Part shown: positions 993-14,576 of the stretch, piece by piece | Position numbering within the stretch: position 1 is the first letter of the stretch | Layout of the letters: every line of letters begins with the position of its first letter | NCBI RefSeq assembly: GCF_008000775.2 | Contig: NZ_CP042905.2 | Coordinates: forward strand, 270,001 to 302,000 | Length of the DNA stretch: 32,000 bases | From: Promethearchaeum syntrophicum | Lineage (GTDB): Archaea > Asgardarchaeota > Lokiarchaeia > Sigyniarchaeales > Promethearchaeaceae | Reading direction: 5' to 3' | Position numbers and translations under genes: made by a program | Notes under the pieces: generated by a model | The model's database searches: none | What the model was told of the DNA's origin: nothing | What the model saw: the letters and a program-made list of their open reading frames with translations, nothing else

Positions 993-2185
993 ATGGAAGA
1001 AGTTGAAAAAAAAGGAACTTCAGGCAAAGTTATTGTGTTTGGAATTTTCCTGGCGACTTTCTTTTGTAGTTTTCGGGACAAGTTAATGATTTAATCACAG
1101 TTAAATATCTTCCGGCACAATTTGCTGGGGATTCAGTTATGTTTGCTTTTACTTTTTCAGCTTTCTCATTAGGTAAAATTTTAACAATGATTTTATTTGC
1201 TAAGTTAAGTGACCGAATTGGGCGTAAAAAGATTTTACTTTTAGCGTTTTCGTTGTATTCTTTAGGGACTTTTTTAGCAGGTATTGCTCAGACTCCACTT
1301 CAATTTATGATTTTTCGCTTTATCAAAGGAACAAGTGCATTTGAAGGAGTAGTATTAGCCTTAATTAACGATTATTATAAAGAGGGAGAAAGAGGAAAAG
1401 CTATGGCAATTTTTAGCGCATCCTTTGGAATTGGTGCTTTAATTGGATCAGTTTTGGGCGGTTACTTTTTAATTTGGTTTGAATACAAGACATCTTTTTT
1501 TATTTTAGGCTTTGTTACTTTGTTATCAATTTTATTCGTTTTTCTTTGTATTTCTAATCATCCTGATCAGAAAATCGAAATCATAAGAAAAACATCTGAA
1601 TATCTCAAAAAAGAAAGGAAACTTCGATTGAATAAGACTTTAAAGACAAAAAATTACATTTTAGCCGTAATAATAAATTTCCTCTTAATGTTTTGTCTTC
1701 AAGGGATATCAACTTATATGATTTTCATCATTCTAAATCATTATTTGATTCTTGAAGAACTCTCAGGATTAATCCTATTTCCAATTACTTTTTCATATAT
1801 CTTTTTTGCACTTGTAATGGGGAAAAAGGAAAACCCAATTAGAATAATTCGTTTCGGTCTAATTATTTTAACAATAAGCTTGTTTTCGGTGATAATTTTG
1901 AATTTTTATGATTTTATATTAATATTTGTAATCGCTGCAGGAATTTCCTCAAGTGCTTTAGGTGCAATCACTCCTGCTGTAGATAATTATATCTCAAGTT
2001 TCATACCAAAATCAATTCGAGGAGAAACTTTAGGAATTTATCGATCACTTTCACTAATTGGAAGCGTTTTTGGAGCTATAACTGCAGGATATTTAGGAAA
2101 TGTTTCTTGGATTTTTTCACCATTTTTAGCGATGGCATTTATAGCTTTAATTTCTTTTCTTGTTAGTTGGGTTTTTTTAAAATAG
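993..2185 (+). pseudogene. MFS (major facilitator superfamily) transporter, apparently interrupted by a 1-nt frameshift near nt 1070-1076
   Basis: The 1139..2185 ORF has multiple hydrophobic helices and the MFS loop 2-3 signature (AKLSDRIGRKKILL). A short ORF from ATG 993 (MEEVEKKGTSGKVIVFGIFLATFFCSF...) encodes the missing TM1 and stops at 1092-1094. The downstream frame is open from 1070 (FSGQVNDLITVKYLPAQFAGDSV MFAFTF...), so the two pieces join if one base is restored in the T-run at about 1070-1073. Confidence 0.6.
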
Positions 2186-2255
2186 ATTTTTAAAATCGAA
2201 AAATAAAATAAGATAAGAGAGGAAATATTACTATTTTTTGAGAGGGAGATAAAAA

Positions 2256-4607
2256 ATGGCGTTAACAACATCTGATGAATTACATAAGCAATTAACAGTA
2301 ATATTTGGATTTTCGGGTCAATTAGATATTGAAGTTGGGGAAATTATCGGAATAGGAAAACTTTCTGAGCACGAAACTAAGAAATTGACTCAATCTGTTC
2401 TAAGATTTTTAAATAATTATAATTCTATGCTTAAAGATTATGCAGGTTGTACGCTTTATTCAATTGAATTTGAATTAGAAAATCTAGGAAAACGAAATTT
2501 AGTTAGTTTAATGCCTAAATCAATGTTATTTATTCCCGGGTCGTATAAAGATTGTAATACTTTAATGTTATTACTCGCTCCAGAAATGAGTCTAGTTGAT
2601 TATACTAAATCAAGAGAAGCAATAGACGATTTAGGAAAGCTATATTTTGAAGTAGAAGAAGCAATAGATCGACCTGAACTCGAAAAAGAACAAAGACGAA
2701 AAGTACTAAAAAATTTTGCTAAAAGATTTGCTTTGAAATTGCAAGGGAATGTAATTAAAGGTAAATGGAATCGCAAAATGATCGGTATAACTTCGGGGAT
2801 TAAAGAAGACCTATATTTATCCGTCAATATCCAAAAGGAAGTTAAATGGAAAAATAAAGAAATTATCCCCTTAAAATCAAGTTTTTCTGTTCCTCGCCTT
2901 AATTTGATGAAAAAAGAACAATTTGATTTTATGAAACATTGGTTAAACCAAAGTACATCATTAGTAATTGCAAAAAATACATGTAAATTGACTGCAAATT
3001 TATTACAACTCGCTAATACCGGAACAATTAGTGAAACTCAAAAGCAGATACTAATAGCTTTCTTAAAATCTTTTATAGATTATTCTGAGCAAAATAAAAA
3101 ACTTGTAACATTTGATCAATTCAAAAGTGAAATTGAATCATTTTATACAATATATGAACAATATTTGGAGAATTTTAAAGAAAAATCAACTAACTTTATA
3201 AAAAGTGGAGAGATAAAACCTCTAAATGAGATAAATTCTTTGTATTTGAATATTTTAACTGAAAAGGACACTACATCTGTAAAAGAGAAATGTATAAATA
3301 ATCTAGCCAAAATTACCCATAATCATATATTCACTACAAAATATCGCTATCATTCTCAAGAAAAAGTTCGATCCTCCGAGTTTACAAATCCTATATTAAA
3401 TATTGAACAAAATACGCAATTAGTGTTAAAAAAAATTAAGAATGCAGTACCTTTCTATATTCAACATTATCTTTTTGATAGTTTTTTTAGTAACCTTTTA
3501 GAAATGTTGCAAAAAGAGTTTGATCTAATTAATAATAAATCAATAAAAGCATTAAGTGTAAAATTTTTAGAAAAATACGAAGATTACCTAAAAAATGAAT
3601 TAGAAAAATCATATTCTCAAATTGTTGCTACAAACCAACGAAATATTTATCTGAAATTTAAAGAGATTGCTAAAAAAACTATAGAGCCATTTATTAATTC
3701 AGTAAATATTGAAATTAAAGATTTAGTTGATTTCTGTAATATTATTTTATCGGATAACCTTGAAATGCAACCATATCTTGAACATTTGAAGAAATTTCAG
3801 GATGAAATCGATTTCTTATGGGGTTTTATTTTGAGATCATCTACTTTTCAGCGATTTTTAAAAGAATATCCAGAAGAAGAAATATTTGATCCTGAACACT
3901 TTGCTAACCGATTTATTGATTTTTTACAAAAAAAACGGTTAGGTGGGCTCCAATTAGAATGGAAAAATTATATTTTCCAATGGATTAACACATATAAATA
4001 TGAGTTTCAAACGAAATACACGAAAGATCAAGAAGGAAAAATTATTTGGCCTAAAACTAAAATAATTTCAAGTTTTATCGATTTTATTGGTAAGAAAGTA
4101 GAAGAAGAAACTACAATCCAAGGATTTTTAAATCCATTGAAAAGATATTTGGACAATATTGCAATGTCAAATATAAAAAATAAATTTGTTTTAGAAATTC
4201 TAGAAGCGTATAAATTAAGTTTAGAAATTGTACAGCAATTTCCTGACTATTTAAGGCAAGTTTTTAATAAAGCAATTGAAAATCGTCAAGAAAAATTAAT
4301 GCCACAAACAATTTCCGCCTATATTGGGGCTATACCAGATTTAGATAAAATTTTATCTGAAGAAATTGAAGAAAAATCACAATTTCTTGCTATAAAAAAA
4401 AGCCTTTATGCGTTTATCATTGAAACTGAATTAAAATATTATTCAAAGCTGTTAGCTAAACCAAAGCAGATTATACTTCAAAATTTAGATAATGAATTAT
4501 TCCAAAAGAAGATATTACAACATCGAATAGAATTTGATACATTAGGCGATAAATATATGAAAATGTCCATTTTTTCAAATTTCAAAGATGTTTATCCACG
4601 ATATTAA
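2256..4607 (+). CDS. large hypothetical protein (783 aa): possible N-terminal Roadblock/LC7-like module followed by a long all-helical region
   Basis: An uninterrupted 2.35-kb ORF in an AT-rich genome, with GAGGGAG about 9 nt upstream of the ATG. Residues about 5-135 show an alpha-beta-beta-alpha-beta-beta-alpha pattern reminiscent of Roadblock/MglB (LTVIFGFSGQLDIEVGEIIGIGK...SVLRFLNNYNSMLKDY...LYSIEFELEN...NTLMLLLAPEMSLV). The remainder is K/E/L/I-rich and helical with no catalytic motif seen. Confidence 0.8.
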   Translation: MALTTSDELHKQLTVIFGFSGQLDIEVGEIIGIGKLSEHETKKLTQSVLRFLNNYNSMLKDYAGCTLYSIEFELENLGKRNLVSLMPKSMLFIPGSYKDCNTLMLLLAPEMSLVDYTKSREAIDDLGKLYFEVEEAIDRPELEKEQRRKVLKNFAKRFALKLQGNVIKGKWNRKMIGITSGIKEDLYLSVNIQKEVKWKNKEIIPLKSSFSVPRLNLMKKEQFDFMKHWLNQSTSLVIAKNTCKLTANLLQLANTGTISETQKQILIAFLKSFIDYSEQNKKLVTFDQFKSEIESFYTIYEQYLENFKEKSTNFIKSGEIKPLNEINSLYLNILTEKDTTSVKEKCINNLAKITHNHIFTTKYRYHSQEKVRSSEFTNPILNIEQNTQLVLKKIKNAVPFYIQHYLFDSFFSNLLEMLQKEFDLINNKSIKALSVKFLEKYEDYLKNELEKSYSQIVATNQRNIYLKFKEIAKKTIEPFINSVNIEIKDLVDFCNIILSDNLEMQPYLEHLKKFQDEIDFLWGFILRSSTFQRFLKEYPEEEIFDPEHFANRFIDFLQKKRLGGLQLEWKNYIFQWINTYKYEFQTKYTKDQEGKIIWPKTKIISSFIDFIGKKVEEETTIQGFLNPLKRYLDNIAMSNIKNKFVLEILEAYKLSLEIVQQFPDYLRQVFNKAIENRQEKLMPQTISAYIGAIPDLDKILSEEIEEKSQFLAIKKSLYAFIIETELKYYSKLLAKPKQIILQNLDNELFQKKILQHRIEFDTLGDKYMKMSIFSNFKDVYPRY

Positions 4608-4621
4608 CAAGATGATGACTT

Positions 4622-7066
4622 ATGGGAGAAATAGTAGCCGTTAGGAGAAGAAAAATTGCCGAAGAGGGAATTCAGCGATTTTTTCAAAGCATATATCAAA
4701 TCCTAAATCATTTCAAAAGTAAATATGATAGAGAATTTCTGTATAAAATAACAACAGAAGAAAATACTCTTACTAATCTTATTATTGGTTCAACAACAAT
4801 CCATATTTATCATTTTCTTGGAATAAGAACTAAATCAGATGAAGAAATGGTTTCACGCACTAGAAATATAAAAGCTTTTCAAAATGCTGAAAAAAAAGAA
4901 ATATTCTCAGAACTACTTGATTTAGTCGGGGATTCAATCAATTATGAATTGGAATTCTTTAAATTATCGATAGATTATGAGGAACAAATTCTTAAATCAA
5001 TGGTTTCAGGAGAAGATCTTAACGAACGGTTTACCCTTAAATTAAGTGAACAGATTGAAGATCATATTATTGAATCCTTAAATAAATATCCAATTTCATA
5101 TTGGATTGATCATATTGGAGAATTGACAGGTTATTCAGAAGTTGTAAAAAATCAAATATTGACCGAAACAGCTGGACTCAAAATAATTGGAGCAGATTTA
5201 GAAAGAAATTTGATTGAAGAAGGGCGTAGAGATCAATACCTTGAATTAACGACATTTTCTCAATTAATTAAAAAGGCAAAAAAAGATTTTGAATTTACAT
5301 CTATTCGCGATTTAAAGATAGAAACTTTTCCAATAAAATTGATGACTAATCAAATTATAAAATATGTTATGAATTTATATCCGATTAGTACTCGAGGAAT
5401 ACATCAATATCTAAAAGCCACTGATTTAAAGAAAAAATTATTTGCAGAATTATTGGCAGCAAATAAGAAATCAACTAATTATATGAAAATGGAAGAAAGA
5501 ATCTTAAGTGAAATAAAAACAGAATTAAAAAATCAAGCTAAGTTAGATCCTAATGATTTTGTATATTTCATTCAAAATCTCTTAGAACTAAATTTTGAAG
5601 AAACATTTGCTTTATTATCTCGTTTGGGAATAGATAACGTTGCTTTATTTTGTCATGTGCAAAATTTTGATTTAGAAATGTTCTTTGAAGATATAAAATT
5701 AAATCAACTTTCTAAAATGTCTTTTATGAAAGTTGGGAAAAAGGAAAATGAACTTCAAAAAGTTGAGGATAAATTAAACGAGTTGAAAAATCGCGGGAAA
5801 ATTAAATCCGGGCTTTCAGGACAAGAATTAGTTTTAAATCCTACTCCTGAGGGGGATAAAATTATTGAATTAGCATGTCAAATGGCTAATGTAGATTGTG
5901 AAAAATATAAACAATTGTGCAAAAAGAAGCAAATTATTATTGACATAATACAGAAAAAATACCCATTAAAGGGACCATATTCTTGTTATTCTATGGTATA
6001 TGACCTTCCAGAGATTTATCAAAATTTAAGTCGACATGTTTATTACAAATACATCGAAAAGGTTTGTAGACATATTGCAAGGGTTTTAGAGACATATATA
6101 AAAATTAAAGAAGATAAAGGATTATTTTTGCAAGGATTAAGAAGGATTTTTAATTCTACTGAAGAAGAAGAATGGGTTGTAGTAAATATTGAAGAACTGA
6201 TTATTCAGAGAATAATGGATCGACAGCAAGAATTATCTATAATTTTTAATGCTGAAACAGATGCATATCTTGTGAATTCTTTCATTCTAGCTAGATTATT
6301 AGATATCGATCTAAAATCTGCATTGAACATGTTAAAAAATGAACCAAGCTCAGTTTATAGAAATTCGGCTGAATTAACGCTTCCAAGAGAACTAATTTCC
6401 CCAAGATCTTATATTATTGCATATGATATATTAACCAGATTCAAAGAACATCAAGAATTATTATTAATGAAGAAGGAGCAGGTTTTCGAATCTAATAAGG
6501 AAAAAAAGTTACAATATGAAAAAGATGTTCAAAAAGCTCGAACTTTAACAACATTGAATTGGATAGACAAGAAAATTACAAGTGGTCTAATTTCTATTTC
6601 TGCAACAACAACAAATCCAACTAAGTTATATTGGAACGAGAAAGATCAAAAAATTACCTCTGAAAATTTAAAACTTCACAGTGAACTTGAAAATATTAAA
6701 ATTTGTTCTGTATGTGGAAAAGATTTAACTAATTCTCCTTGTTCAGATCATCCTGGAAGCGAAAAGGAGGCAAATCCTGTTGATTTATTTGCTAGCTTCT
6801 ATTCTTTTGCTTTAAGTAGAATAAAATTACATTGGAGTAAAACTAAATTACCAACTTATGAAGCGATTTATAATGAAGTTTTAAATTGGGTATTAGAAAT
6901 AACAGAGAAACGTTTAGGGAAAAAAATCAATCCAGAAGAAAGTAAAAATCTCCTTGAAGGCGAACGTCTAGAAGTTTCGAATAAAATAGCTAGTTCCATT
7001 GGAATTATTCTAGATAAAGCACTTTATAAGAAATTTAAGGCAAGTATGAAAACTAGGAAAAATTGA
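4622..7066 (+). CDS. large hypothetical protein (814 aa), mostly helical, with a single CX2C-X8-CX2H zinc-knuckle-like motif near the C-terminus
   Basis: A 2.4-kb ORF starting 14 nt after the previous stop, so a likely operon partner. The motif CSVCGKDLTNSPCSDH is encoded at 6704-6751. I saw no P-loop or other enzymatic signature. Confidence 0.8.
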   Translation: MGEIVAVRRRKIAEEGIQRFFQSIYQILNHFKSKYDREFLYKITTEENTLTNLIIGSTTIHIYHFLGIRTKSDEEMVSRTRNIKAFQNAEKKEIFSELLDLVGDSINYELEFFKLSIDYEEQILKSMVSGEDLNERFTLKLSEQIEDHIIESLNKYPISYWIDHIGELTGYSEVVKNQILTETAGLKIIGADLERNLIEEGRRDQYLELTTFSQLIKKAKKDFEFTSIRDLKIETFPIKLMTNQIIKYVMNLYPISTRGIHQYLKATDLKKKLFAELLAANKKSTNYMKMEERILSEIKTELKNQAKLDPNDFVYFIQNLLELNFEETFALLSRLGIDNVALFCHVQNFDLEMFFEDIKLNQLSKMSFMKVGKKENELQKVEDKLNELKNRGKIKSGLSGQELVLNPTPEGDKIIELACQMANVDCEKYKQLCKKKQIIIDIIQKKYPLKGPYSCYSMVYDLPEIYQNLSRHVYYKYIEKVCRHIARVLETYIKIKEDKGLFLQGLRRIFNSTEEEEWVVVNIEELIIQRIMDRQQELSIIFNAETDAYLVNSFILARLLDIDLKSALNMLKNEPSSVYRNSAELTLPRELISPRSYIIAYDILTRFKEHQELLLMKKEQVFESNKEKKLQYEKDVQKARTLTTLNWIDKKITSGLISISATTTNPTKLYWNEKDQKITSENLKLHSELENIKICSVCGKDLTNSPCSDHPGSEKEANPVDLFASFYSFALSRIKLHWSKTKLPTYEAIYNEVLNWVLEITEKRLGKKINPEESKNLLEGERLEVSNKIASSIGIILDKALYKKFKASMKTRKN

Positions 7067-7130
7067 ATCGCGTTTTAAAACAAATCGAACTATAAAATTT
7101 TTATTACTTTTTCATTTTTTCATCTTAATA

Positions 7131-7391
7131 ATGGATCTAAATCTCTCTAAAATTAATAAAAAATTTTTGATTAAAGGAGCTATTTACGCACTAATGTTAA
7201 TGGTTGCACCAATTTTGGGTATTTTAATGCGTAGCGGTGGTTCTAATCAATATCTAATCTTTGGGTTTGTAGCGGCTATCAATATTATTGCAGTAATCGG
7301 TGTTTTTAAAATGTTGAAAGATGATTTATTTGAGGAAGAAAAAGAAGAAATCCATGATAAGAAAAAAAAAATAACAGAAACAACTAAATAG
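7131..7391 (+). CDS. small membrane protein (86 aa, two predicted TM helices, acidic/basic C-terminal tail)
   Basis: Hydrophobic stretches AIYALMLMVAPILGILM and YLIFGFVAAINIIAVIGVF are followed by EEEKEEIHDKKKK. A TATAAAATTTTTA element lies about 30 nt upstream of the ATG. Confidence 0.55.
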   Translation: MDLNLSKINKKFLIKGAIYALMLMVAPILGILMRSGGSNQYLIFGFVAAINIIAVIGVFKMLKDDLFEEEKEEIHDKKKKITETTK

Positions 7392-8247
7392 TTCTTAAAA
7401 TTTCCCTCCAAGGTAAATTGGGATTTCCGTATTTTTTAATTTCTTCATTAATTTCCTTTAAAACTTCAGGACTATAAATCCATGCGTCATCTTTATTAAA
7501 AGATAAACATTTTACATTTAAACCACGAATATTAAGTATTCTTCTTAAAATTAAAGCATAAAAAGCAATTTGTGGTAGAGATCTGAGGAAATAACCTTCA
7601 GGTTTGTAATCTGCTATGATCAAATTTTCCCCCTTTTTATCGTAAAGTAATAAATCTATATGTCCTGTTATTGACTTAGAATAAGAAAAATCATAATCAT
7701 TTTTTCCAATATTCATGTAATCTGTTAATTTTTTTTGTTTCCTTAACCATATTGGCGTTTCTATTGATAAAGCATTCCCAAGTTTTAATAAAATTGCCGT
7801 TAAGACAGAATCATGAGATGGTTTATAATAAGAATCTGGATCTTTTTCAAAATCTTCAAAACTTTCATTTACAATATCTAACAAATTATGGACCCATTTG
7901 TAATCCCCAATTTTAGAAGTAGGAATTGAATTTATTCGATTTATAGAACCTGTTTCTAATAATTTTTCCGATATTATTTTGTGAGCACCGCGGTTTAACT
8001 TGGTAATTTTAAAATTTGAACAACGTGTGATTTTTGAATCATTAAATAAATCAAGTGCGATTTGTTTTTTTAGAATTAAATCAAATAGACCATTTATTTT
8101 AGTCTGAATTGGTTTGGACATGAGCGAAATCACGTTTTGACGCTTTGCTAATTTAAATTCATATTTGATTCCAGAATGAAAAAATCTTTGAATTGATATC
8201 GTGTCTGTATTCTTATTTTTCAAATAGTTTTCACCAAATATCTCCAT
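7384..8247 (-). CDS. PD-(D/E)xK nuclease, Cas4/RecB-like core without an Fe-S cysteine set (paralog 1, 287 aa)
   Basis: Ordered motifs are SIETPIW (E), GHIDLLLYD (D), IIADYKPE (D-x-K) and LPQIAFYAL (QxxxY). This is the canonical RecB/Cas4-type arrangement. Only two Cys are present, so no 4-Cys cluster. The N-terminal ~150 aa is an unknown domain shared with the neighbour. Confidence 0.7.
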   Translation of the reverse strand: MEIFGENYLKNKNTDTISIQRFFHSGIKYEFKLAKRQNVISLMSKPIQTKINGLFDLILKKQIALDLFNDSKITRCSNFKITKLNRGAHKIISEKLLETGSINRINSIPTSKIGDYKWVHNLLDIVNESFEDFEKDPDSYYKPSHDSVLTAILLKLGNALSIETPIWLRKQKKLTDYMNIGKNDYDFSYSKSITGHIDLLLYDKKGENLIIADYKPEGYFLRSLPQIAFYALILRRILNIRGLNVKCLSFNKDDAWIYSPEVLKEINEEIKKYGNPNLPWREILRTI

Positions 8248-9029
8248 ATCAGATTAGGATTTCCGAATCTTTCTATGTAATAGGGGATTTGTTTCTTAAT
8301 AATTTCTGGATCATAAATCCAAAGTTTATCTTTACTAAAAGAAATACACTTAATCTTATCCAATTTCAACATTTTTTTTATAAATAACCCATAGGTGGCC
8401 ACTTGAGGCAAGCTTCGTAAAAAACCATTTTCGGGTTTGTAATCTGCTACGATTATGCTATTATCCAATTCATCATACAAGAGAAGATCAATATGTCCTG
8501 TGAATAATTCTCCGGTGATACATGAAAATTCCGTTCTTTGAATTAATTTAGTCCTAAATGATTCCAAAGTGGAGCTCCATATTGGGATTTCTATACTTAA
8601 GCTATTTTCATTTAATTCTAAGATCTTTTGAAGGATAGGACCATGTTTCGGATTTTTTTTCATCTGATAATAAAAAATATCATACCAAATTCTTGTCATT
8701 TTTACCAAATTAACAATACTCTTGGAAACGTCTTTGGGGGTATTTTCATCATTAACAAGAGTTACATAGTTATTTTTTATGAGCTCCAAAGAAATTTTTT
8801 TTAAACCATCTTTATCTAAATTCTTAAGTTTAAAACTTGAGCATCGTAAAATTTCTTTACTATTGAATAATTTTTCGGGGTATACATTCGAGCAAACTAA
8901 ATTATAATACTTAATTAATTTGTTTCCAAAATTTTGGGCAATGTTTGGCAAATGATGGCGATTTTCAACCCATTTAAACTCATATTCAACCCCGCCTTGG
9001 TAAAACTTTCGAGTTTCTATCTCAACCAA
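8220..9029 (-). CDS. PD-(D/E)xK nuclease, Cas4/RecB-like core (paralog 2, 269 aa), inferred TTG start
   Basis: It has the same motif set: SIEIPIW, GHIDLLLYD, IVADYKPE, LPQVATYGL, and the C-terminal FGNPNLIWR (versus YGNPNLPWR in paralog 1). The frame opens only 2 codons upstream of the TTG at 9029-9027, and the N-terminal conserved block (TRKFYQGGVEYEF versus IQRFFHSGIKYEF) requires a start there. Confidence 0.65.
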   Translation of the reverse strand: MVEIETRKFYQGGVEYEFKWVENRHHLPNIAQNFGNKLIKYYNLVCSNVYPEKLFNSKEILRCSSFKLKNLDKDGLKKISLELIKNNYVTLVNDENTPKDVSKSIVNLVKMTRIWYDIFYYQMKKNPKHGPILQKILELNENSLSIEIPIWSSTLESFRTKLIQRTEFSCITGELFTGHIDLLLYDELDNSIIVADYKPENGFLRSLPQVATYGLFIKKMLKLDKIKCISFSKDKLWIYDPEIIKKQIPYYIERFGNPNLIWRYLVKTI

Positions 9030-9094
9030 CTTTTCTCAAATATGAAGTAATAGCATAACTTTTAAGAGTTAACGTTAACGGATTATTTGATGTG

Positions 9095-9571
9095 ATGAAA
9101 AAAATTCCAATAATCGGGATGACAAAAAAATTTCATCCAAAAAAAAGTCTTTCACTTGATTATATAGCTAAAAATGTAGATAGAATAAACTTTCTAAACA
9201 AAATTCTTCCCACAGATCAAATTGAAGTAAAATCTATAAATAAGGATTACATTCAAATTGTTTACAATAAACCATTGAATTATCAGATTATTTCTGAATT
9301 AAAAATTGAAATGGATTTAAAAATTGAACAACAAATTCCTGATGAGATATCCCCATTAATTTGGAATTTCTCAACAAAGAATTCTTCTCATTTTTATGAA
9401 TATTCAGGAAGAATAAGAGCAAAAAGGGTCGGGAAAGACATTAAAATTGGCTTATTTATTTATGAAATAAAATTAGATAATGAAAATATAACCAAATTCG
9501 GGCTTCGAGCCATGAAAAATATCATAAAAGAATTAATTCTACAGATTTTCCAAAATCTAACTAAATTATAA
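9095..9571 (+). CDS. hypothetical protein (about 158 aa)
   Basis: ORF track entry 9092..9571. The first codon is GTG, immediately followed by ATG at 9095. It is divergent from the nuclease pair (about 65-nt spacer). No recognisable motif. Confidence 0.45.
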   Translation: MKKIPIIGMTKKFHPKKSLSLDYIAKNVDRINFLNKILPTDQIEVKSINKDYIQIVYNKPLNYQIISELKIEMDLKIEQQIPDEISPLIWNFSTKNSSHFYEYSGRIRAKRVGKDIKIGLFIYEIKLDNENITKFGLRAMKNIIKELILQIFQNLTKL

Positions 9572-9626
9572 TAAAAAAAACAATAAAAACAATAAAAAAG
9601 ATGAAAAAAATCAATATATAGATAGT

Positions 9627-9875
9627 TTATTCACATGCTGCAATATCTGCGGCAGTTACTCTCTTTCTCTTGTCACCTTTGACAAGTTTAACAGCTTCTT
9701 TCGTAACTTCTTTAGCTGCTTTTGTTAATTCTTCGATCAATAAAATTACTGCATCTTCAGCTACTAATCCTGCGCCTTCATTCTTCATTAATCGTCGAAT
9801 TGGTGCTTTAGCAATGTAGGCGGATCGGTTTTTGGTTGCTGCTTTCTTTTTTGGTGCTGCTTTTTTCTTAGCCAT
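9627..9875 (-). CDS. archaeal histone (HMf-type histone fold) with a lysine-rich N-terminal tail
   Basis: IAKAPIRRLMKNEGAGLVAEDAVILLIEELTKAAKEVTKEAVKLVKGDKRKRVTAADIAA aligns by eye to the HMfA/B histone fold (loop-1 R, RKT-like motif). It is preceded by MAKKKAAPKKKAATKNRSAY. The track start at 9884 is GTG, so ATG at 9875 is the more likely start. Confidence 0.85.
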   Translation of the reverse strand: MAKKKAAPKKKAATKNRSAYIAKAPIRRLMKNEGAGLVAEDAVILLIEELTKAAKEVTKEAVKLVKGDKRKRVTAADIAACE

Positions 9876-9892
9876 ATTTTTCACATCATTAA

Positions 9893-9906
9893 TTTTTTAT
9901 AAAAAA
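9893..9906 (-). promoter_or_regulatory. TATA-box-like element upstream of the histone gene (short or absent 5-prime leader)
   Basis: The minus strand reads GGATATTTTTTATAAAAAATTAATGATGTGAAAAATATG. The T/A box is centred about 24 nt upstream of the ATG, matching the archaeal TATA-to-TSS spacing. Confidence 0.4.
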
Positions 9907-10403
9907 TATCCTCCGCGATGATAGGATATAAATACAATATCACAAACTCACTATATAAATGTTGTGTATTTTGAATAGGTTTGGGGCGAAATTTAAACCG
10001 AGTTTATAGATCTCTTCAAATTTTTTCCCACTAAAATCAAATAAAGAAGGAAAAAAAAAAAATCTTTTATCTTAAGGCTACGCATACAGAACGTTTAAAT
10101 GAAGTTATTTTAATTTTACTCCCGAAATATTTCCCACTATTCTAGCGATCAATTTTTGTCGGATACAAACATTCATCAATTATTTTTATCAAATTTTATT
10201 CAATAATTTGTTTAAATCTTTCTGAATCACTCATTATCTTATATTTTCCTTTTAATCACGTGAAAAAGTGCCAAACAAAAATGTCAAATTCTTTAAATGG
10301 TGATAACTATTAAAAAAAAAATAGAAGTTCATAATTCTTGATAGGATTTGTTCAAGTACCTTTAAAATTCAAAAATTGAGTTTATTTTGATAAAAAATGA
10401 GTT

Positions 10404-10421
10404 AAAAAAAAATTTTTTTTT
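10404..10421 (-). terminator. A9T9 palindromic oligo-T tract immediately after the oxidoreductase operon stop
   Basis: AAAAAAAAATTTTTTTTT lies 3 nt downstream of the stop at 10425-10427. Oligo-T tracts are the usual archaeal intrinsic termination signal. The palindrome presents a T-run on both strands. Confidence 0.4.
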
Positions 10422-10424
10422 CTT

Positions 10425-11528
10425 CTAGATAATTAAATCTTTATTCATTATTTGATACCCAGATGATCTAACTATTGCAGATTTCAAGAATTGAAAACCA
10501 ATATTAACGGTAGAACCATCTCCACCAATATGAATTACATAAGGGACTTCTTTCTTGATTCCTTTATTGTACATGATTCTATAAGCTGTAGAAATTGCAT
10601 CCGCTACTGTTGCTCCAGATTCAAATAATTGATGCATCCATGAAGCTTGCCATGAGGTTACATCATCCTTACTTGTAGCTACTTCCACACAACATGTATT
10701 ATTCACATAAATACAATTCTCTTTGGCTACTAGGTAAGCTGCGTGCCCCAATTGATTCAGAAGCATTCCAGCACCACAACCGGGACAAAGTCCATATCCT
10801 GGATTTATATGAAATTGGGGAGGAATTTCTCTATGAATCACGGAATATCGTATTTTACAATCATCTTCCCCAAATGAAGCGAGTAGGTTATTTAAATTTA
10901 TATTTCGGGCTTTAACTTGACCAAAATTTTCATCAATATTCTTTTCTAAAAATTCAGGCTTCAACAAGTGGCGGAATTTACCTTGAGTTTTCAGGTATTC
11001 CAACATTTTCTCTTCATCGGTTGTAATATATTCCTTTTCAGATTCAGATTTCTTCATTCCAGGAACTGAAGTATAGTAATATTTTGGAACTCCATCTTTA
11101 ACTTTAATTGTGATTAAAGGCCAATATCCAGATTCTGTTGCTAGTTTTGAAATTTTGATAGTGTCTTTTGACGGATGACGCCAACCTCTAGGACATGGGC
11201 TATAAACTTGAATAAATCCTCCTCCAGGAGTTTTCATTGCATCCATCACTTTTCCCATGAGATCAGTAGGATAAGCCACATTTGCAGTAGCAAAGAAAGC
11301 ACTTTTATGACCAAGAAATGTAAAACCTAAGATATAATCTTCTTTAATTCCGATTTTCCCCTTAATTTTTTGTCCTCCTGGTCCTGTTGTAGTGCTGGCT
11401 CCAAATGGTGTGGTTCCACTTTCTTGAATACCAGTATTCATAAAAGCTTCGTTATCATATCCAATATATAATACTGTATTTCTTTCAGATCGTGCCAAAA
11501 TATCTGCCATTTTTATTATTTTTGTCAT
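10425..11528 (-). CDS. 2-oxoacid:ferredoxin oxidoreductase beta (TPP-binding) subunit, with the canonical C-terminal half preceding the canonical N-terminal half (apparent circular permutation)
   Basis: The protein contains all PorB-type signatures: YDNEAFMNTGIQESGTTP, VYSPCPRGW, WPL, GKFRHLL, then LCPGCGAG, NNTCCVEV, HIGGDGSTVNIGFQ. The likely start is ATG at 11528 (MTKIIKM...), 8 nt after GGAGATGAT and just after the alpha-subunit stop. The track start at 11564 overlaps the alpha gene. Confidence 0.85.
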   Translation of the reverse strand: MTKIIKMADILARSERNTVLYIGYDNEAFMNTGIQESGTTPFGASTTTGPGGQKIKGKIGIKEDYILGFTFLGHKSAFFATANVAYPTDLMGKVMDAMKTPGGGFIQVYSPCPRGWRHPSKDTIKISKLATESGYWPLITIKVKDGVPKYYYTSVPGMKKSESEKEYITTDEEKMLEYLKTQGKFRHLLKPEFLEKNIDENFGQVKARNINLNNLLASFGEDDCKIRYSVIHREIPPQFHINPGYGLCPGCGAGMLLNQLGHAAYLVAKENCIYVNNTCCVEVATSKDDVTSWQASWMHQLFESGATVADAISTAYRIMYNKGIKKEVPYVIHIGGDGSTVNIGFQFLKSAIVRSSGYQIMNKDLII

Positions 11529-11545
11529 GATATCATCTCCTTTAA

Positions 11546-12772
11546 TTAAAAACGAACCTCCCACATCTTATCTTTGGATTGCCGAACTCCAAGGTAATCA
11601 TACAATTTTCCTCTATTATCCGTTATAGGTTTCATCTTTTTCGCCGCATATTCAATTTCATCTTTGGTAACATCTCGCCCACCTAATCCGACGATAAGAG
11701 ATCTAAGAACTACATTTAACCCAAAAAGCGCGCTTGCAACTGATTGGCCAACTGGAGGTAGAATTCCACTAAGATCATCATCTTTTTCAAGAATAATAAT
11801 TTTTTCAATTTTATTCTCTTCAATGATTTTTCTGAGTTTTTCAGCAGGAAACGGTCTCCATGTTCTTAACTTAATTAATCCTACATCTTTATTGTGTTCC
11901 ATCCAAGTTAGAATATTCCCACACATCGATCCCATTGTTAGAAACACTGTTTTACTAGAGCATTCTAAATTATATGTTTCAATCGAATGATAAGATCTCC
12001 CTGTCATTTTTTCAAATTCTTTGAAAGCATTATCAATTATGGGCAATACTTTATTCTTTTCTAATTCTAAAGCTAATCTTCCTTCTCCAAAATAATCAGG
12101 TGTAACAATTCCACCCCAAGTCCCTGTTTTTTCAGTATTAATATGGTGGCGTGGTTTTTTGGGAGTATATTTCAGGACATCCTCATCTGGAACTGCGAAG
12201 AATTTCTGCGCACTATGTGAAATTATAAACCCATCGTGAACAAATTGAGTTGGGAATAATGAATCTTCAGAAATTTTGGATGCAATTATTGAAGCATCAT
12301 ATGTTTCTTGAACATTTTCAGAAACAATCGTATTCCATCCCATCCCAGATAGTAATGTAAATTCCCATGAATTCCATATTGAAAGATTTGGAGAATTAAA
12401 TGCACGGGCTGATATCATCATTGTTAGCGGAACTCGCCATCCAGGGGCCATAGGTAAACATTCAGCCATTAACAATAACCCTTGAGATGCAGTAGCTATA
12501 AAAGTTCGCGCTCCAGCAGCACATGCAGCAGTACTAAACGCGCATGCCGCTAATTCAGATTCTACATTAACAAATGCCGCTTTCAACTTTCCATGGTTGA
12601 CAACATCAGATAAACCTTCCACAGATTGAGTTTGAGGCGTAATTGGAAATGCACAAATCACATCGGGATCAGTTTGACTAACGCCACCCGCAACAGCATA
12701 ATTACCTGTCATAGTTAATTCGACAGGTTCCTTGATTTCCTTGAAAAAAGGATTCATTGGTTGTACAGACAT
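11546..12772 (-). CDS. 2-oxoacid:ferredoxin oxidoreductase alpha subunit
   Basis: The N-terminus TGNYAVAGGVSQTDPDVICAFPITPQTQ, then ESELAA...GARTFIATASQGLLLM, and the C-terminal GLGGRD are typical of PorA/VorA. GGTGAT lies 8 nt upstream of the ATG. Confidence 0.9.
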   Translation of the reverse strand: MSVQPMNPFFKEIKEPVELTMTGNYAVAGGVSQTDPDVICAFPITPQTQSVEGLSDVVNHGKLKAAFVNVESELAACAFSTAACAAGARTFIATASQGLLLMAECLPMAPGWRVPLTMMISARAFNSPNLSIWNSWEFTLLSGMGWNTIVSENVQETYDASIIASKISEDSLFPTQFVHDGFIISHSAQKFFAVPDEDVLKYTPKKPRHHINTEKTGTWGGIVTPDYFGEGRLALELEKNKVLPIIDNAFKEFEKMTGRSYHSIETYNLECSSKTVFLTMGSMCGNILTWMEHNKDVGLIKLRTWRPFPAEKLRKIIEENKIEKIIILEKDDDLSGILPPVGQSVASALFGLNVVLRSLIVGLGGRDVTKDEIEYAAKKMKPITDNRGKLYDYLGVRQSKDKMWEVRF

Positions 12773-12785
12773 TTTTCATATCACC

Positions 12786-13775
12786 TTAGCATTTCATGAC
12801 CATAGTCAAAGCTTTATGGACCTCTCCCGTTTCTTTATCTTTCTTTCCTGGACAAACATAAACACAATTTTCGCACCCTTTACAATGAAATGCGTCAACA
12901 CCGACTATTTGCCATTTATTATCTTTAAATTCTCGTTGAATACATAAATCAGGGCAAATAAAAACACAACTGCCGCACTGTATACAATATTCTGGGTGAA
13001 AAGATGCATAACTGACTCCCCAAGATCCTGTATTTACCCGAGTTGAGCCTCCGTCTATGGCATCAGTATACCAAACTCCTGCTTTATCTAATTCTGCAGC
13101 TCCTAATTTACCTAAGCCAATGTGGCTCCATTCTTTCTTGTAATCTTTTTCAAAACTAACTTTTATTTTATCATCACAAGGAAAAATTATAGTTGCATCT
13201 GGAACTGTTTTTATTGCATCCATGTTCTTTTGTGCAATTTTTGGATTGAATTGTTCACCTATTGCAGAAATCAATTCTTCTAAAGCAAAAATTTGTGGTG
13301 CGACCTTGACTAAAGCTCCTAAAATTAAGGTATTCGTAATATTTCGCCCTAAATATTCTAACGCAATATTTGTAGCATCAATTAGTGCAACATTTATTGC
13401 TGGAGGATTATTCTTATCAATAATTTCTCGTATTTCCTCATAGGGTTTACATGTGTTTACAATCAAGTAACCCCCTGGAACCATTCCAGCAGTACAGTCT
13501 ACATCTTCAAGTAAAGTATCATCTAAGACACAACTATATTGGGGGGAGTAAACTTGCTCATTTGTTCGTACTTTATTATAGTCTTTTGACATTCGTGCAA
13601 AAGAGGCAACAGGAGATCCCATTCTTTCTGCACCAAAAGTGGGCATACAAGTAGCTGGACCATCAAATGCCATAGAACAGAGTTGGGCAGCAGTAACCGC
13701 TCCTTGACCCCCACGTCCGTGAAATCTCACAAGATATTTGGGTATATTTTCTTTATTTTCAGTCATATTTTTCAT
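12786..13775 (-). CDS. 2-oxoacid:ferredoxin oxidoreductase gamma-delta fusion subunit (gamma domain plus 2x[4Fe-4S] ferredoxin-like delta domain)
   Basis: RFHGRGGQGAVTAAQ is the gamma signature. The C-terminal CIQCGSCVFICP and CKGCENCVYVCP are two CX2CX2CX3CP ferredoxin motifs. The track start at 13796 is TTG. In-frame ATGs lie at 13775 and 13766, so the start is uncertain within about 30 nt. Confidence 0.88.
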   Translation of the reverse strand: MKNMTENKENIPKYLVRFHGRGGQGAVTAAQLCSMAFDGPATCMPTFGAERMGSPVASFARMSKDYNKVRTNEQVYSPQYSCVLDDTLLEDVDCTAGMVPGGYLIVNTCKPYEEIREIIDKNNPPAINVALIDATNIALEYLGRNITNTLILGALVKVAPQIFALEELISAIGEQFNPKIAQKNMDAIKTVPDATIIFPCDDKIKVSFEKDYKKEWSHIGLGKLGAAELDKAGVWYTDAIDGGSTRVNTGSWGVSYASFHPEYCIQCGSCVFICPDLCIQREFKDNKWQIVGVDAFHCKGCENCVYVCPGKKDKETGEVHKALTMVMKC

Positions 13776-14117
13776 CCCATTTAAATGGAAAAACAATAAC
13801 TAGACTTCGCTTTGTCATAATAAATGATGTCTTATAGATTTTCCTTTATCAAATTATTTAGGATAAAATCATAGCAATTACATATTTAATTGAATACAAT
13901 AGATAATTAAATCGGGTTCTAATTTTTTGGAGAACCAATCAAATGATTTCAAATATGGAATACATTTTCTAATCTTAGCTAACTTTTAGATACTAATTTA
14001 CCATTGACATAATATTCGAAGTTTAAAAAAATAGATATTTAAAAATTTTATAGAGTTATAGTATTTTTCTTGTAAAACCCTAACCATAACCTAAATGACC
14101 ATTATCTAGATGATTTA

Positions 14118-14576
14118 ATGCAAATCACAGTAAATTCAAACATTTATATAAAATTGGTTTCTATTCTTCAAAAAATTAATAAAGATCTAGGAAGTCCTGC
14201 AAATTTCAGTATGGTTCTCCAACTCATGTTTGATAGAATCAAAATTATAAGAAAACTTCAAGAGGAAAATTCGAAATTAAGAGAAAAGGTTGATGAAATG
14301 AATTTTAATATGCAAGATTTGTTACGATTATCTCTTTCTAGACCCGCTGCCCCAATTATGGCAATGGCACAATCAAATCTTCAACCATTATCTCCTCCTT
14401 CATCATTATATCCTCCAGCACCTCCCATTAGAAAGATAAAAAATATTATTCATTCTCCTCCAGAAACGTTGAATATAAAAAAAGATTTACAGATTGAATT
14501 AAATCAACTCTTAGATGGAAGTGTTCCTAAACCTTCAAAGATTAAACAACTCATAGAACAGAATATAGCAAACTAA
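14118..14576 (+). CDS. hypothetical protein (152 aa): possible ribbon-helix-helix-like N-terminus, short coiled coil, proline-rich segment
   Basis: ITVNSNIYIKLVSILQKINKDLGSPANFSMVLQLMFD fits a beta-strand plus two helices. It is followed by KLQEENSKLREKVDEM, then LSPPSSLYPPAPPI. The domain assignment is speculative. Confidence 0.45.
   Translation: MQITVNSNIYIKLVSILQKINKDLGSPANFSMVLQLMFDRIKIIRKLQEENSKLREKVDEMNFNMQDLLRLSLSRPAAPIMAMAQSNLQPLSPPSSLYPPAPPIRKIKNIIHSPPETLNIKKDLQIELNQLLDGSVPKPSKIKQLIEQNIAN

Follow-up and report, generated by a model that had tools for sequence, protein, structure and literature searches.

We analysed a stretch of 32,000 nucleotides (nt) of the Promethearchaeum syntrophicum genome (NZ_CP042905.2, positions 270,001 to 302,000; hereafter the window). 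It contains two adjacent minus-strand genes, called here paralogs A and B, whose products add an uncharacterised member to a familiar class of enzymes, the RecB family of PD-(D/E)XK nucleases. In automatic annotation the proteins already appear either as 'PD-(D/E)XK nuclease family protein' or as 'hypothetical protein', and the locus tags of the corresponding Lokiarchaeum pair (NEF87_002843 and NEF87_002844) are mentioned in no paper. What is newly recognised is an Asgard-wide conserved gene with a single ancient duplication, an integrated N-terminal extension and a persistent neighbourhood with two conserved orphans.

The nuclease gene pair

The features of the locus are listed in table 1. 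An earlier reading of the window, made from the sequence alone (the sequence-only reading), had described the two open reading frames (ORFs) of 287 and 269 amino acids (aa) as paralogous. Their coordinates proved exact, and a BLASTP alignment of A against B gives 35% identity across 276 columns, essentially the full length of both proteins (expectation value E 2e-52). These are the only copies in the 4.32-megabase genome. Named relatives are found in Promethearchaeum metagenome-assembled genomes (73–74% identity), in Lokiarchaeum ossiferum Loki-B35 and in Harpocratesius repetitus.

The TTG start proposed for B is supported by an in-frame TGA located 7 nt upstream and by the lack of any other ATG, GTG or TTG ahead of the conserved beta-hairpin. 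The resulting N-terminus, MVEIETRKF, aligns with MVSVEKRQF of the L. ossiferum ortholog. Two starts are available for A, and the data favour neither. The TTG at 8223 is preceded, at 7-nt spacing, by GGTGA; it leaves a 4-nt overlap with B (TTGA) and fits the protein form on record (P0003), which has 279 aa. The disputed N-terminal residues are predicted to be disordered in the AlphaFold2 model of A (predicted local distance difference test score, pLDDT, of 36). Among close relatives this stretch differs in length by whole codons only, and so it is translated.

The 28-nt overlap between B and A reported in the sequence-only reading exists if A begins at ATG 8247, and shrinks to the 4 nt mentioned above with the alternative start. 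It is also seen in two other Promethearchaeum genomes when the longest ORFs are taken; in other genera, B and A are separated by gaps of 60–110 nt instead. Whether 28 nt overlap is a matter of which start codon is taken, and only one genus shows the feature. The convergent 8-nt overlap between A and the end of the neighbouring operon is present as described.

Table 1. Positions, in the window, of the nuclease gene pair, its motifs and the neighbouring operon.
Feature	Position	Strand	Remarks
Paralog B (upstream copy)	8220–9029	−	269 aa, TTG start; RecB-family PD-(D/E)XK nuclease (predicted); family-profile score 341 bits
Paralog A (downstream copy)	7384–8247	−	287 aa from ATG 8247, or 279 aa from TTG 8223; RecB-family PD-(D/E)XK nuclease (predicted)
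B/A out-of-frame overlap	8220–8247	−	end of B over ATG start of A; 28 nt if A begins at ATG 8247
Overlap of A stop with stop of 86-aa membrane-protein gene	7384–7391	both	convergent; 8 nt, CTAAATAG
A, R75-C76-S77 (RCS, residues 75–77)	8017–8025	−	R-x-S of N-terminal extension
B, equivalent of R75-C76-S77 (RCS, from residue 62)	8838–8846		R-x-S of N-terminal extension
A, H145	7813–7815	−	
A, motif I	7759–7761	−	E163, in IETPIW
B, motif I	8589–8591	−	E147; IE(T/I)PIW-type sequence from residue 146
A, catalytic motifs II–IV	7558–7665	−	GHIDLLLYD, residues 195–203 (D198); ADYKPE, 212–217 (D213, K215); LPQIAFY, from 224 (Q226, Y230)
B, catalytic motifs II–IV	8391–8498	−	GHIDLLLYD, from residue 178 (D181); ADYKPE, from 195 (D196, K198); LPQVATY, from 207 (Q209, Y213)
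Neighbour operon	2256–7391	+	c2, c3 and small membrane protein; context, functional link not established
Orphan c2	2256–4607	+	783 aa
Orphan c3	4622–7066	+	814 aa
Small membrane protein	7131–7391	+	86 aa

Fold and active site

The Pfam model PDDEXK_1 (PF12705) matches A with a borderline score of 22.7 bits (cutoff 22) and 14 of 21 family members at E ≤ 0.1, the best at 5e-6. At the same threshold, none of the 21 members is matched by the Pfam models for Cas4 (Cas_Cas4) or Exo5. The structure of A was predicted by AlphaFold2 using 22 homologs as input (pLDDT 84.7; predicted template modelling score, pTM, 0.85). When this model was compared with the PDB by Foldseek, all leading matches were RecB-family proteins: MGME1, the RecB nuclease domain, EXO5, AddA, Cas4 and SSO0001. 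A comparison with the predicted viral structures of BFVD gave 25 matches at E ≤ 1e-3; about half of these are unnamed, and the named ones are all PD-(D/E)XK, RecB or Cas4-like exonucleases. A sequence-profile search of the PDB with the nuclease family returned nothing at E ≤ 10, and searches of A and B against NCBIfam, PADLOC and PHROGs were unproductive.

On the basis of sequence and model, A and B are assigned to the RecB family of PD-(D/E)XK nucleases. The fold class can be considered secure, although the Pfam score is borderline and restricted to A of the two copies and the Foldseek scores against the PDB are weak; membership of a characterised subfamily is not secure. These results bear out the Cas4/RecB-like assignment of the sequence-only reading. 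No characterised family claims the proteins, to judge from NCBIfam, PADLOC and the PDB profile search.

Both copies contain the full motif series recognised earlier, E / GHIDLLLYD / (I/V)ADYKPE / LPQ(I/V)A.Y, together with the GNPNL.WR tail (GNPNL at residue 274 of A and 256 of B) and, in the N-terminal part, RCS.FK. In the model of A, H145 is carried by a helix and E163 by the first long strand. D198 (strand 193–203) and D213/K215 lie on the next two strands, and Q226 and Y230 on the helix that follows (220–238). This predicted layout is the canonical RecB-type arrangement.

Nine A and nine B copies were examined, and E163, D198, D213, Q226, Y230 and H145 are kept in all of them; these residues are also invariant in the single-copy orthologs. 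In motif II, D198 is invariant in 40 of 40 sequences compared. The D213-Y-K215 triplet of motif III is present in A and B and is invariant save for one B copy with N at position 215. No position is fixed differently between the nine A and the nine B copies. One row of the alignment is in the wrong frame (L041:9490–10260, plus strand), which can have affected the conservation counts only by lowering them; the tree described below is based on the correct gene (L041 9592–10362, minus strand). There are two cysteines in A (76 and 247) and four in B (46, 63, 170 and 228), and C247 of A is the only one conserved in the family; consequently there is no four-cysteine cluster of the Cas4/AddB type, in agreement with the earlier observation that the iron–sulphur (Fe–S) cysteines are lacking.

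N-terminal extension

The sequence-only reading also described a shared N-terminal region of about 150 aa as an additional domain. The region is indeed shared, and its first part is without detectable relative, but it is not an independent domain. Residues 114–160 of A (approximate limits) form two helices carrying the invariant H145 and are part of the nuclease core. Residues 17–110, which match nothing, comprise a beta-hairpin and two helices with the invariant R75-x-S77; the R and the S are kept in 40 of 40 sequences compared. The whole chain of A is predicted as one compact body (pTM 0.85), and the full profile, from its first 40 to its last 30 positions, is covered by 89 of the 108 relatives of at least 220 aa. 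The region of the R-x-S motif also aligns in the fusion proteins and in the provirus-borne relative described below, the latter having K in place of R. Taken together, the model and the alignments indicate that residues 17–110 are a family-specific extension of about 100 residues packed on the core, not a separable domain. R75 and S77 may bind a phosphate or the end of a DNA molecule. Some fusion proteins seemed to hold this N-terminal region more than once, but the extra matches were insignificant (scores ≤ 0.3 bits) and the idea was dropped.

Distribution and duplication

A family-profile search of 400 Asgard genomes found the nuclease in 12 of 13, 1 of 1, 120 of 135 and 4 of 4 genomes of the four families of the order to which Promethearchaeum belongs, mostly as a single copy. 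Weaker 'double' matches in other Asgard families turned out to be the two halves of single ORFs of 243–266 aa. Judged by their sequences, these ORFs of other Asgard classes are distant full-length orthologs. Their neighbourhoods have no common theme and include transglutaminase-like, RimK-like and winged-helix proteins. We regard the standalone gene as a stably, vertically inherited chromosomal gene, near-universal in the order.

The maximum-likelihood tree follows taxonomy and includes one duplication. The clade A + B has support values of 100/100, the A clade 98/96 and the B clade 100/99; outside A + B branch the genes of the sister family and of two further genera of this family, all of them single-copy. 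A single tandem duplication, in the last ancestor shared by Promethearchaeum, Lokiarchaeum, Harpocratesius and one further genus, gave rise to the pair. The tandem order, B followed by A, has been kept in all nine genomes that descend from the duplication. Pairwise ratios of non-synonymous to synonymous substitution rates (dN/dS) are 0.12–0.27 for A (0.24–0.27 within the genus) and 0.09–0.16 for B (about 0.10 within the genus). Both copies are under purifying selection.

A low-confidence insert of about 35 residues separates the E163 strand from the GHIDLL strand (window 7690–7760, about residues 164–186 of A, with an equivalent in B). It is present in both paralogs and absent from all single-copy orthologs, and was therefore gained before the duplication.

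Proposed function

RecB, AddA and MGME1 work by means of metal-binding acidic residues, a lysine that activates water, and a glutamine and a tyrosine that position the strand. In A and B, E163, D198 and D213, together with H145, would hold Mg2+ or Mn2+, K215 would activate the water molecule, and Q226 and Y230 would position the scissile strand. The reading that we prefer, with a probability of roughly 0.5, is that both proteins are catalytically competent, metal-dependent RecB-family DNA nucleases that associate as an A/B hetero-oligomer and have a role in chromosomal housekeeping. The analysis shows the fold class, the intact motifs with their active-site geometry, the history of duplication, the purifying selection and the lack of defence signatures; DNA as the substrate, the hetero-oligomer and the housekeeping role are the parts that we infer. 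The enzyme would act on DNA ends or on single-stranded tails or flaps, and would not be a defence effector. In the Promethearchaeum/Lokiarchaeum lineage, A and B would cooperate as a hetero-oligomer that replaced an ancestral homo-oligomer. There is a precedent in AddAB, where each of two RecB-like nuclease domains cuts one strand. A hetero-oligomeric DNA nuclease is favoured because both copies are under purifying selection and have kept their catalytic residues.

Several observations weigh against this proposal. No Pfam model matches copy B on its own, and the Foldseek scores against the PDB are weak (E 2e-3 to 1e-2, TM 0.25–0.34). None of the neighbouring genes suggests DNA repair. The nuclease gene is missing from some genomes of the order, two of which consist of a single contig, and is therefore not strictly essential. 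Finally, fusions to long unannotated regions, a variable copy number and an occurrence on one provirus-like contig would suit a role in mobile elements or defence for at least some of the wider family.

The conserved neighbourhood

The operon that converges on A encodes two large orphan proteins, c2 and c3, and a small membrane protein. The order c2, c3, small membrane protein and, facing them, the nuclease is found in every fetched locus of two families (f1 and f3), with the exception of one genus. By coordinates, the nuclease and c2 are 2.4–3.2 kilobases (kb) apart on the same contig in most of the genomes where both were located. The sequence-only reading had treated these convergent neighbours as incidental; their adjacency to the nuclease is in fact the most conserved feature of the locus.

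The c2–c3–membrane-protein operon is itself mostly single-copy and near-universal in the order. In the four families of the order, c2 is present in 13 of 13, 1 of 1, 122 of 135 and 4 of 4 genomes, and it also occurs in three other Asgard families. Some variants were observed (loci L081–L086; L081 corresponds to G237:C50:66000–85999). In one genus the operon is inverted in place, so that the nuclease gene lies upstream of it and is read in the same direction. In one genome the four-gene block occurs twice, as diverged copies whose two nuclease genes are adjacent and divergent, and another genome has a second copy of c2.

The AlphaFold2 model of c2 (pLDDT 80, pTM 0.74) consists of long bundles of helices, flanked on either side by small alpha/beta domains. 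This confident model has no fold match in the PDB by Foldseek (best E 0.6), and so the neighbours offer no clue to function; sequence-profile searches of the PDB with c2 and c3 gave no match either. A possible link of the Rosetta-stone type, through homology of the orphans to the N-terminal partners of the nuclease fusions, was abandoned when phmmer found nothing.

The other neighbours are a 159-aa ORF, a histone and subunits of a 2-oxoacid:ferredoxin oxidoreductase. The 159-aa ORF (9092–9571, plus strand, GTG start) is divergent from paralog B, with 62 nt between the two. Pfam gives no match for this ORF, and none of the related genomes examined has a counterpart at the same position; it may be genus-specific or not a gene. 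As in the sequence-only reading, no known defence or repair context was recognised: the window has no array resembling clustered regularly interspaced short palindromic repeats (CRISPR) and no Rfam RNA, the ten neighbouring ORFs scanned (1139–14576) contain no helicase domain, no integrase or transposase was found among the neighbouring ORFs, and the PADLOC defence models match neither A, nor B, nor their neighbours.

The persistence of this arrangement raises a second explanation, in which the nuclease is the enzymatic part of a conserved Asgard-specific module with c2, c3 and the small membrane protein, and its activity is directed or controlled by the complex. The recurrent gene order and the short distance between the nuclease and c2 speak for a module of this kind. 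Between f1 and f3, moreover, the four genes have been inverted together with respect to the histone/c5 flank; in genus g20, several genomes have the nuclease upstream of c2–c3–membrane protein in the same direction, and the whole block is present in two diverged copies in one genome. Of the 13 f3 genomes without c2, 12 are also without the standalone nuclease, and two of these genomes are single-contig; neighbouring genes are, however, expected to go missing together where assemblies are incomplete, and related genomes do not count as independent observations.

On the other side, the usual convergent orientation means separate transcripts, and the co-directional variant is an in-place inversion of c2–c3–membrane protein alone, which places the nuclease outside that operon. 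The adjacency is broken in one f1 genus (g2) and in family f4. In families f7, f20 and f21, c2 is present and the nuclease profile finds nothing, and the distant nuclease orthologs of other classes do not adjoin c2 or c3. The fold of c2 is unrecognisable and suggests nothing of a nucleic-acid function. In view of these points we consider the module possible and put it at clearly lower odds than an independent hetero-oligomeric nuclease.

A bolder form of the idea is slightly more doubtful again. It supposes that the nuclease or nucleases, the two orphans of about 800 aa and the membrane protein are a previously unrecognised Asgard-specific machine of which the nuclease is the only recognisable enzyme; the neighbourhood maintained through inversions and block duplication in two Lokiarchaeia families would be its trace. 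If the nuclease does work with the orphans, it would give a first functional handle on two large conserved Asgard proteins without recognisable fold.

The wider family

Relatives of the nuclease were searched for with the family profile among 1.84 billion cluster representatives. There are 501 at E ≤ 1e-3, the best 150 of which were classified: 35 are standalone, 42 are fragments and 68 are fusions. A profile search of a word-indexed protein database found no relatives beyond those of the single-sequence search. In the 68 fusions, the whole unit of about 250 aa is located at the C-terminus of proteins of 340–1680 aa. The fusion partners belong to a few unannotated families, with weak winged-helix matches and, once, a TFIIB-repeat match.

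The largest group of fusions (29 of the 68) has an N-terminal region of about 500 aa in which a K.PKY.A..LIY..L-like motif recurs three times. Among its members are P0060, P0065, P0085, P0088–P0090, P0094, P0099, P0115, P0142, P0150 and P0158; loci L065–L070 belong to this group. The recurrences look like cyclin/TFIIB-type repeats in sequence. The TFIIB Pfam match is weak (E 0.016) and limited to one member of the group, and a sequence-profile search of the PDB with this main fusion family gave no match.

Another relative is borne by a provirus-like contig (IMGVR_UViG_3300031541_000112; 20 kb, 41% guanine plus cytosine). It is a protein of 498 aa (L064:7152–8648, plus strand) with a zinc-ribbon-like CxxC start and a complete nuclease unit at its end (KKCSDIR, HEN, EVPVW, GHIDLL, DYKP, QVFLY). 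The contig also encodes an integrase, a CI-like repressor and a small terminase, and the nuclease gene lies between the repressor and the integrase. Neither A nor the provirus-borne protein has a relative among GenBank phages.

Defence systems often employ RecB-like nucleases as effectors, and the A/B pair could serve defence or a mobile element by degrading invading DNA, in the manner of many stand-alone Cas4/RecB-like effectors. The wider family provides the arguments for such a role: long variable regions are fused to the nuclease in 68 of the best 150 representatives, there are up to seven profile matches per f3 genome, one relative has the provirus-like setting just described, and the cores of two relatives give weak Cas4-type PADLOC matches. 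Defence genes are usually patchy in distribution and horizontally mobile. The standalone gene, by contrast, is near-universal, mostly single-copy and syntenic, with a tree that follows taxonomy. The pair and its neighbours match no PADLOC model, GenBank phages hold no match, and no integrase, transposase or CRISPR array is near. A role in defence is improbable for the pair itself; some members of the wider family may act in defence or on behalf of mobile elements.

Some PD-(D/E)XK proteins act on RNA, such as the cap-snatching endonucleases and Dxo/Rai1. An RNA substrate, for processing or decay, would be consistent with the presence of cap-snatching endonucleases among the lower Foldseek matches and with a neighbourhood that holds nothing specific to DNA metabolism. 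The set of GhhD, DYK and QxxxY motifs and the best structural matches nevertheless belong to the DNA-acting RecB branch, and the RNA-acting matches score about 10–100 times worse; we judge action on RNA to be unlikely, marginally more so than a defence role. The least credible explanation is that one of the two proteins has lost catalysis and serves as a regulatory or scaffolding subunit (a pseudo-enzyme): within the genus B is the slower-evolving copy (dN/dS 0.10, against 0.25 for A), and four of the nine B copies have Q or S in place of H24, but E163, D198, D213, Q226, Y230 and H145 are kept throughout and K215 in all but one B copy.

A hetero-oligomeric housekeeping DNA nuclease remains our preferred interpretation of A and B. 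The family is of interest as near-universal in the order that holds the cultured Promethearchaeum and Lokiarchaeum, with an intact RecB-type active site and a place in no characterised family. Because the pair is found in two organisms that are in culture, it is accessible to nuclease assays, pull-downs and transcript mapping. As it stands, the result is a solid improvement of annotation rather than a surprise, and its interest is moderate.

Comparison with known systems

Cas4 and the viral Cas4-like 5'–3' exonucleases (PF01930/PF12705; for example SSO0001 and the type I-C Cas4) resemble A and B in their size (about 200–290 aa), their stand-alone RecB-like core and their QxxxY helix. Cas4 structures (8d3l_I, 4ic1) are among the structural matches in the PDB, and Cas4-like proteins of archaeal viruses among those in BFVD. 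Unlike Cas4, which has one N-terminal and three C-terminal Fe–S cysteines, A and B are without these four residues; they have no Cas_Cas4 match, and neither cas genes nor a CRISPR array are nearby. Human EXO5 and yeast Exo5 share the RecB-like fold, and EXO5 is one of the top matches (7lwa_A, 7lw7), but it carries an Fe–S cluster and no sequence-level relationship to A or B was detected. With both MGME1 and EXO5 the similarity is a weak one of fold, the PDB profile search having given nothing at E ≤ 10.

The best Foldseek matches (5zyw, 6sjb_B, 3u44_A) are human MGME1, the C-terminal domain of Escherichia coli RecB and the nuclease domain of Bacillus subtilis AddA. Like A and B, these nuclease domains have no cysteine cluster. 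GHIDLL and DYKPE closely resemble the RecB-type motifs II and III, and the series formed by an acidic or His motif I, GhhD, D-x-K and Q-x-x-x-Y is common to both. In contrast to these enzymes, A and B have no helicase or other partner domain, and their likeness to the solved structures is a weak one of fold (low TM-scores, 0.25–0.34) with no significant sequence-profile match. They also have the additional N-terminal extension of about 100 residues, with its beta-hairpin and R-x-S motif, and the standalone form was found only in Asgard archaea.

AddAB offers a parallel for the pair as such: in both cases two paralogous RecB-type units, with both active sites intact, are encoded side by side. 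Both AddA and AddB exceed 1100 aa and include helicase or helicase-like domains, and an Fe–S cluster is present in AddB, whereas A and B are nucleases of about 270 aa with a proposed association. Should they form a heterodimer, they would represent the two-nuclease design of AddAB in minimal form and without a helicase.

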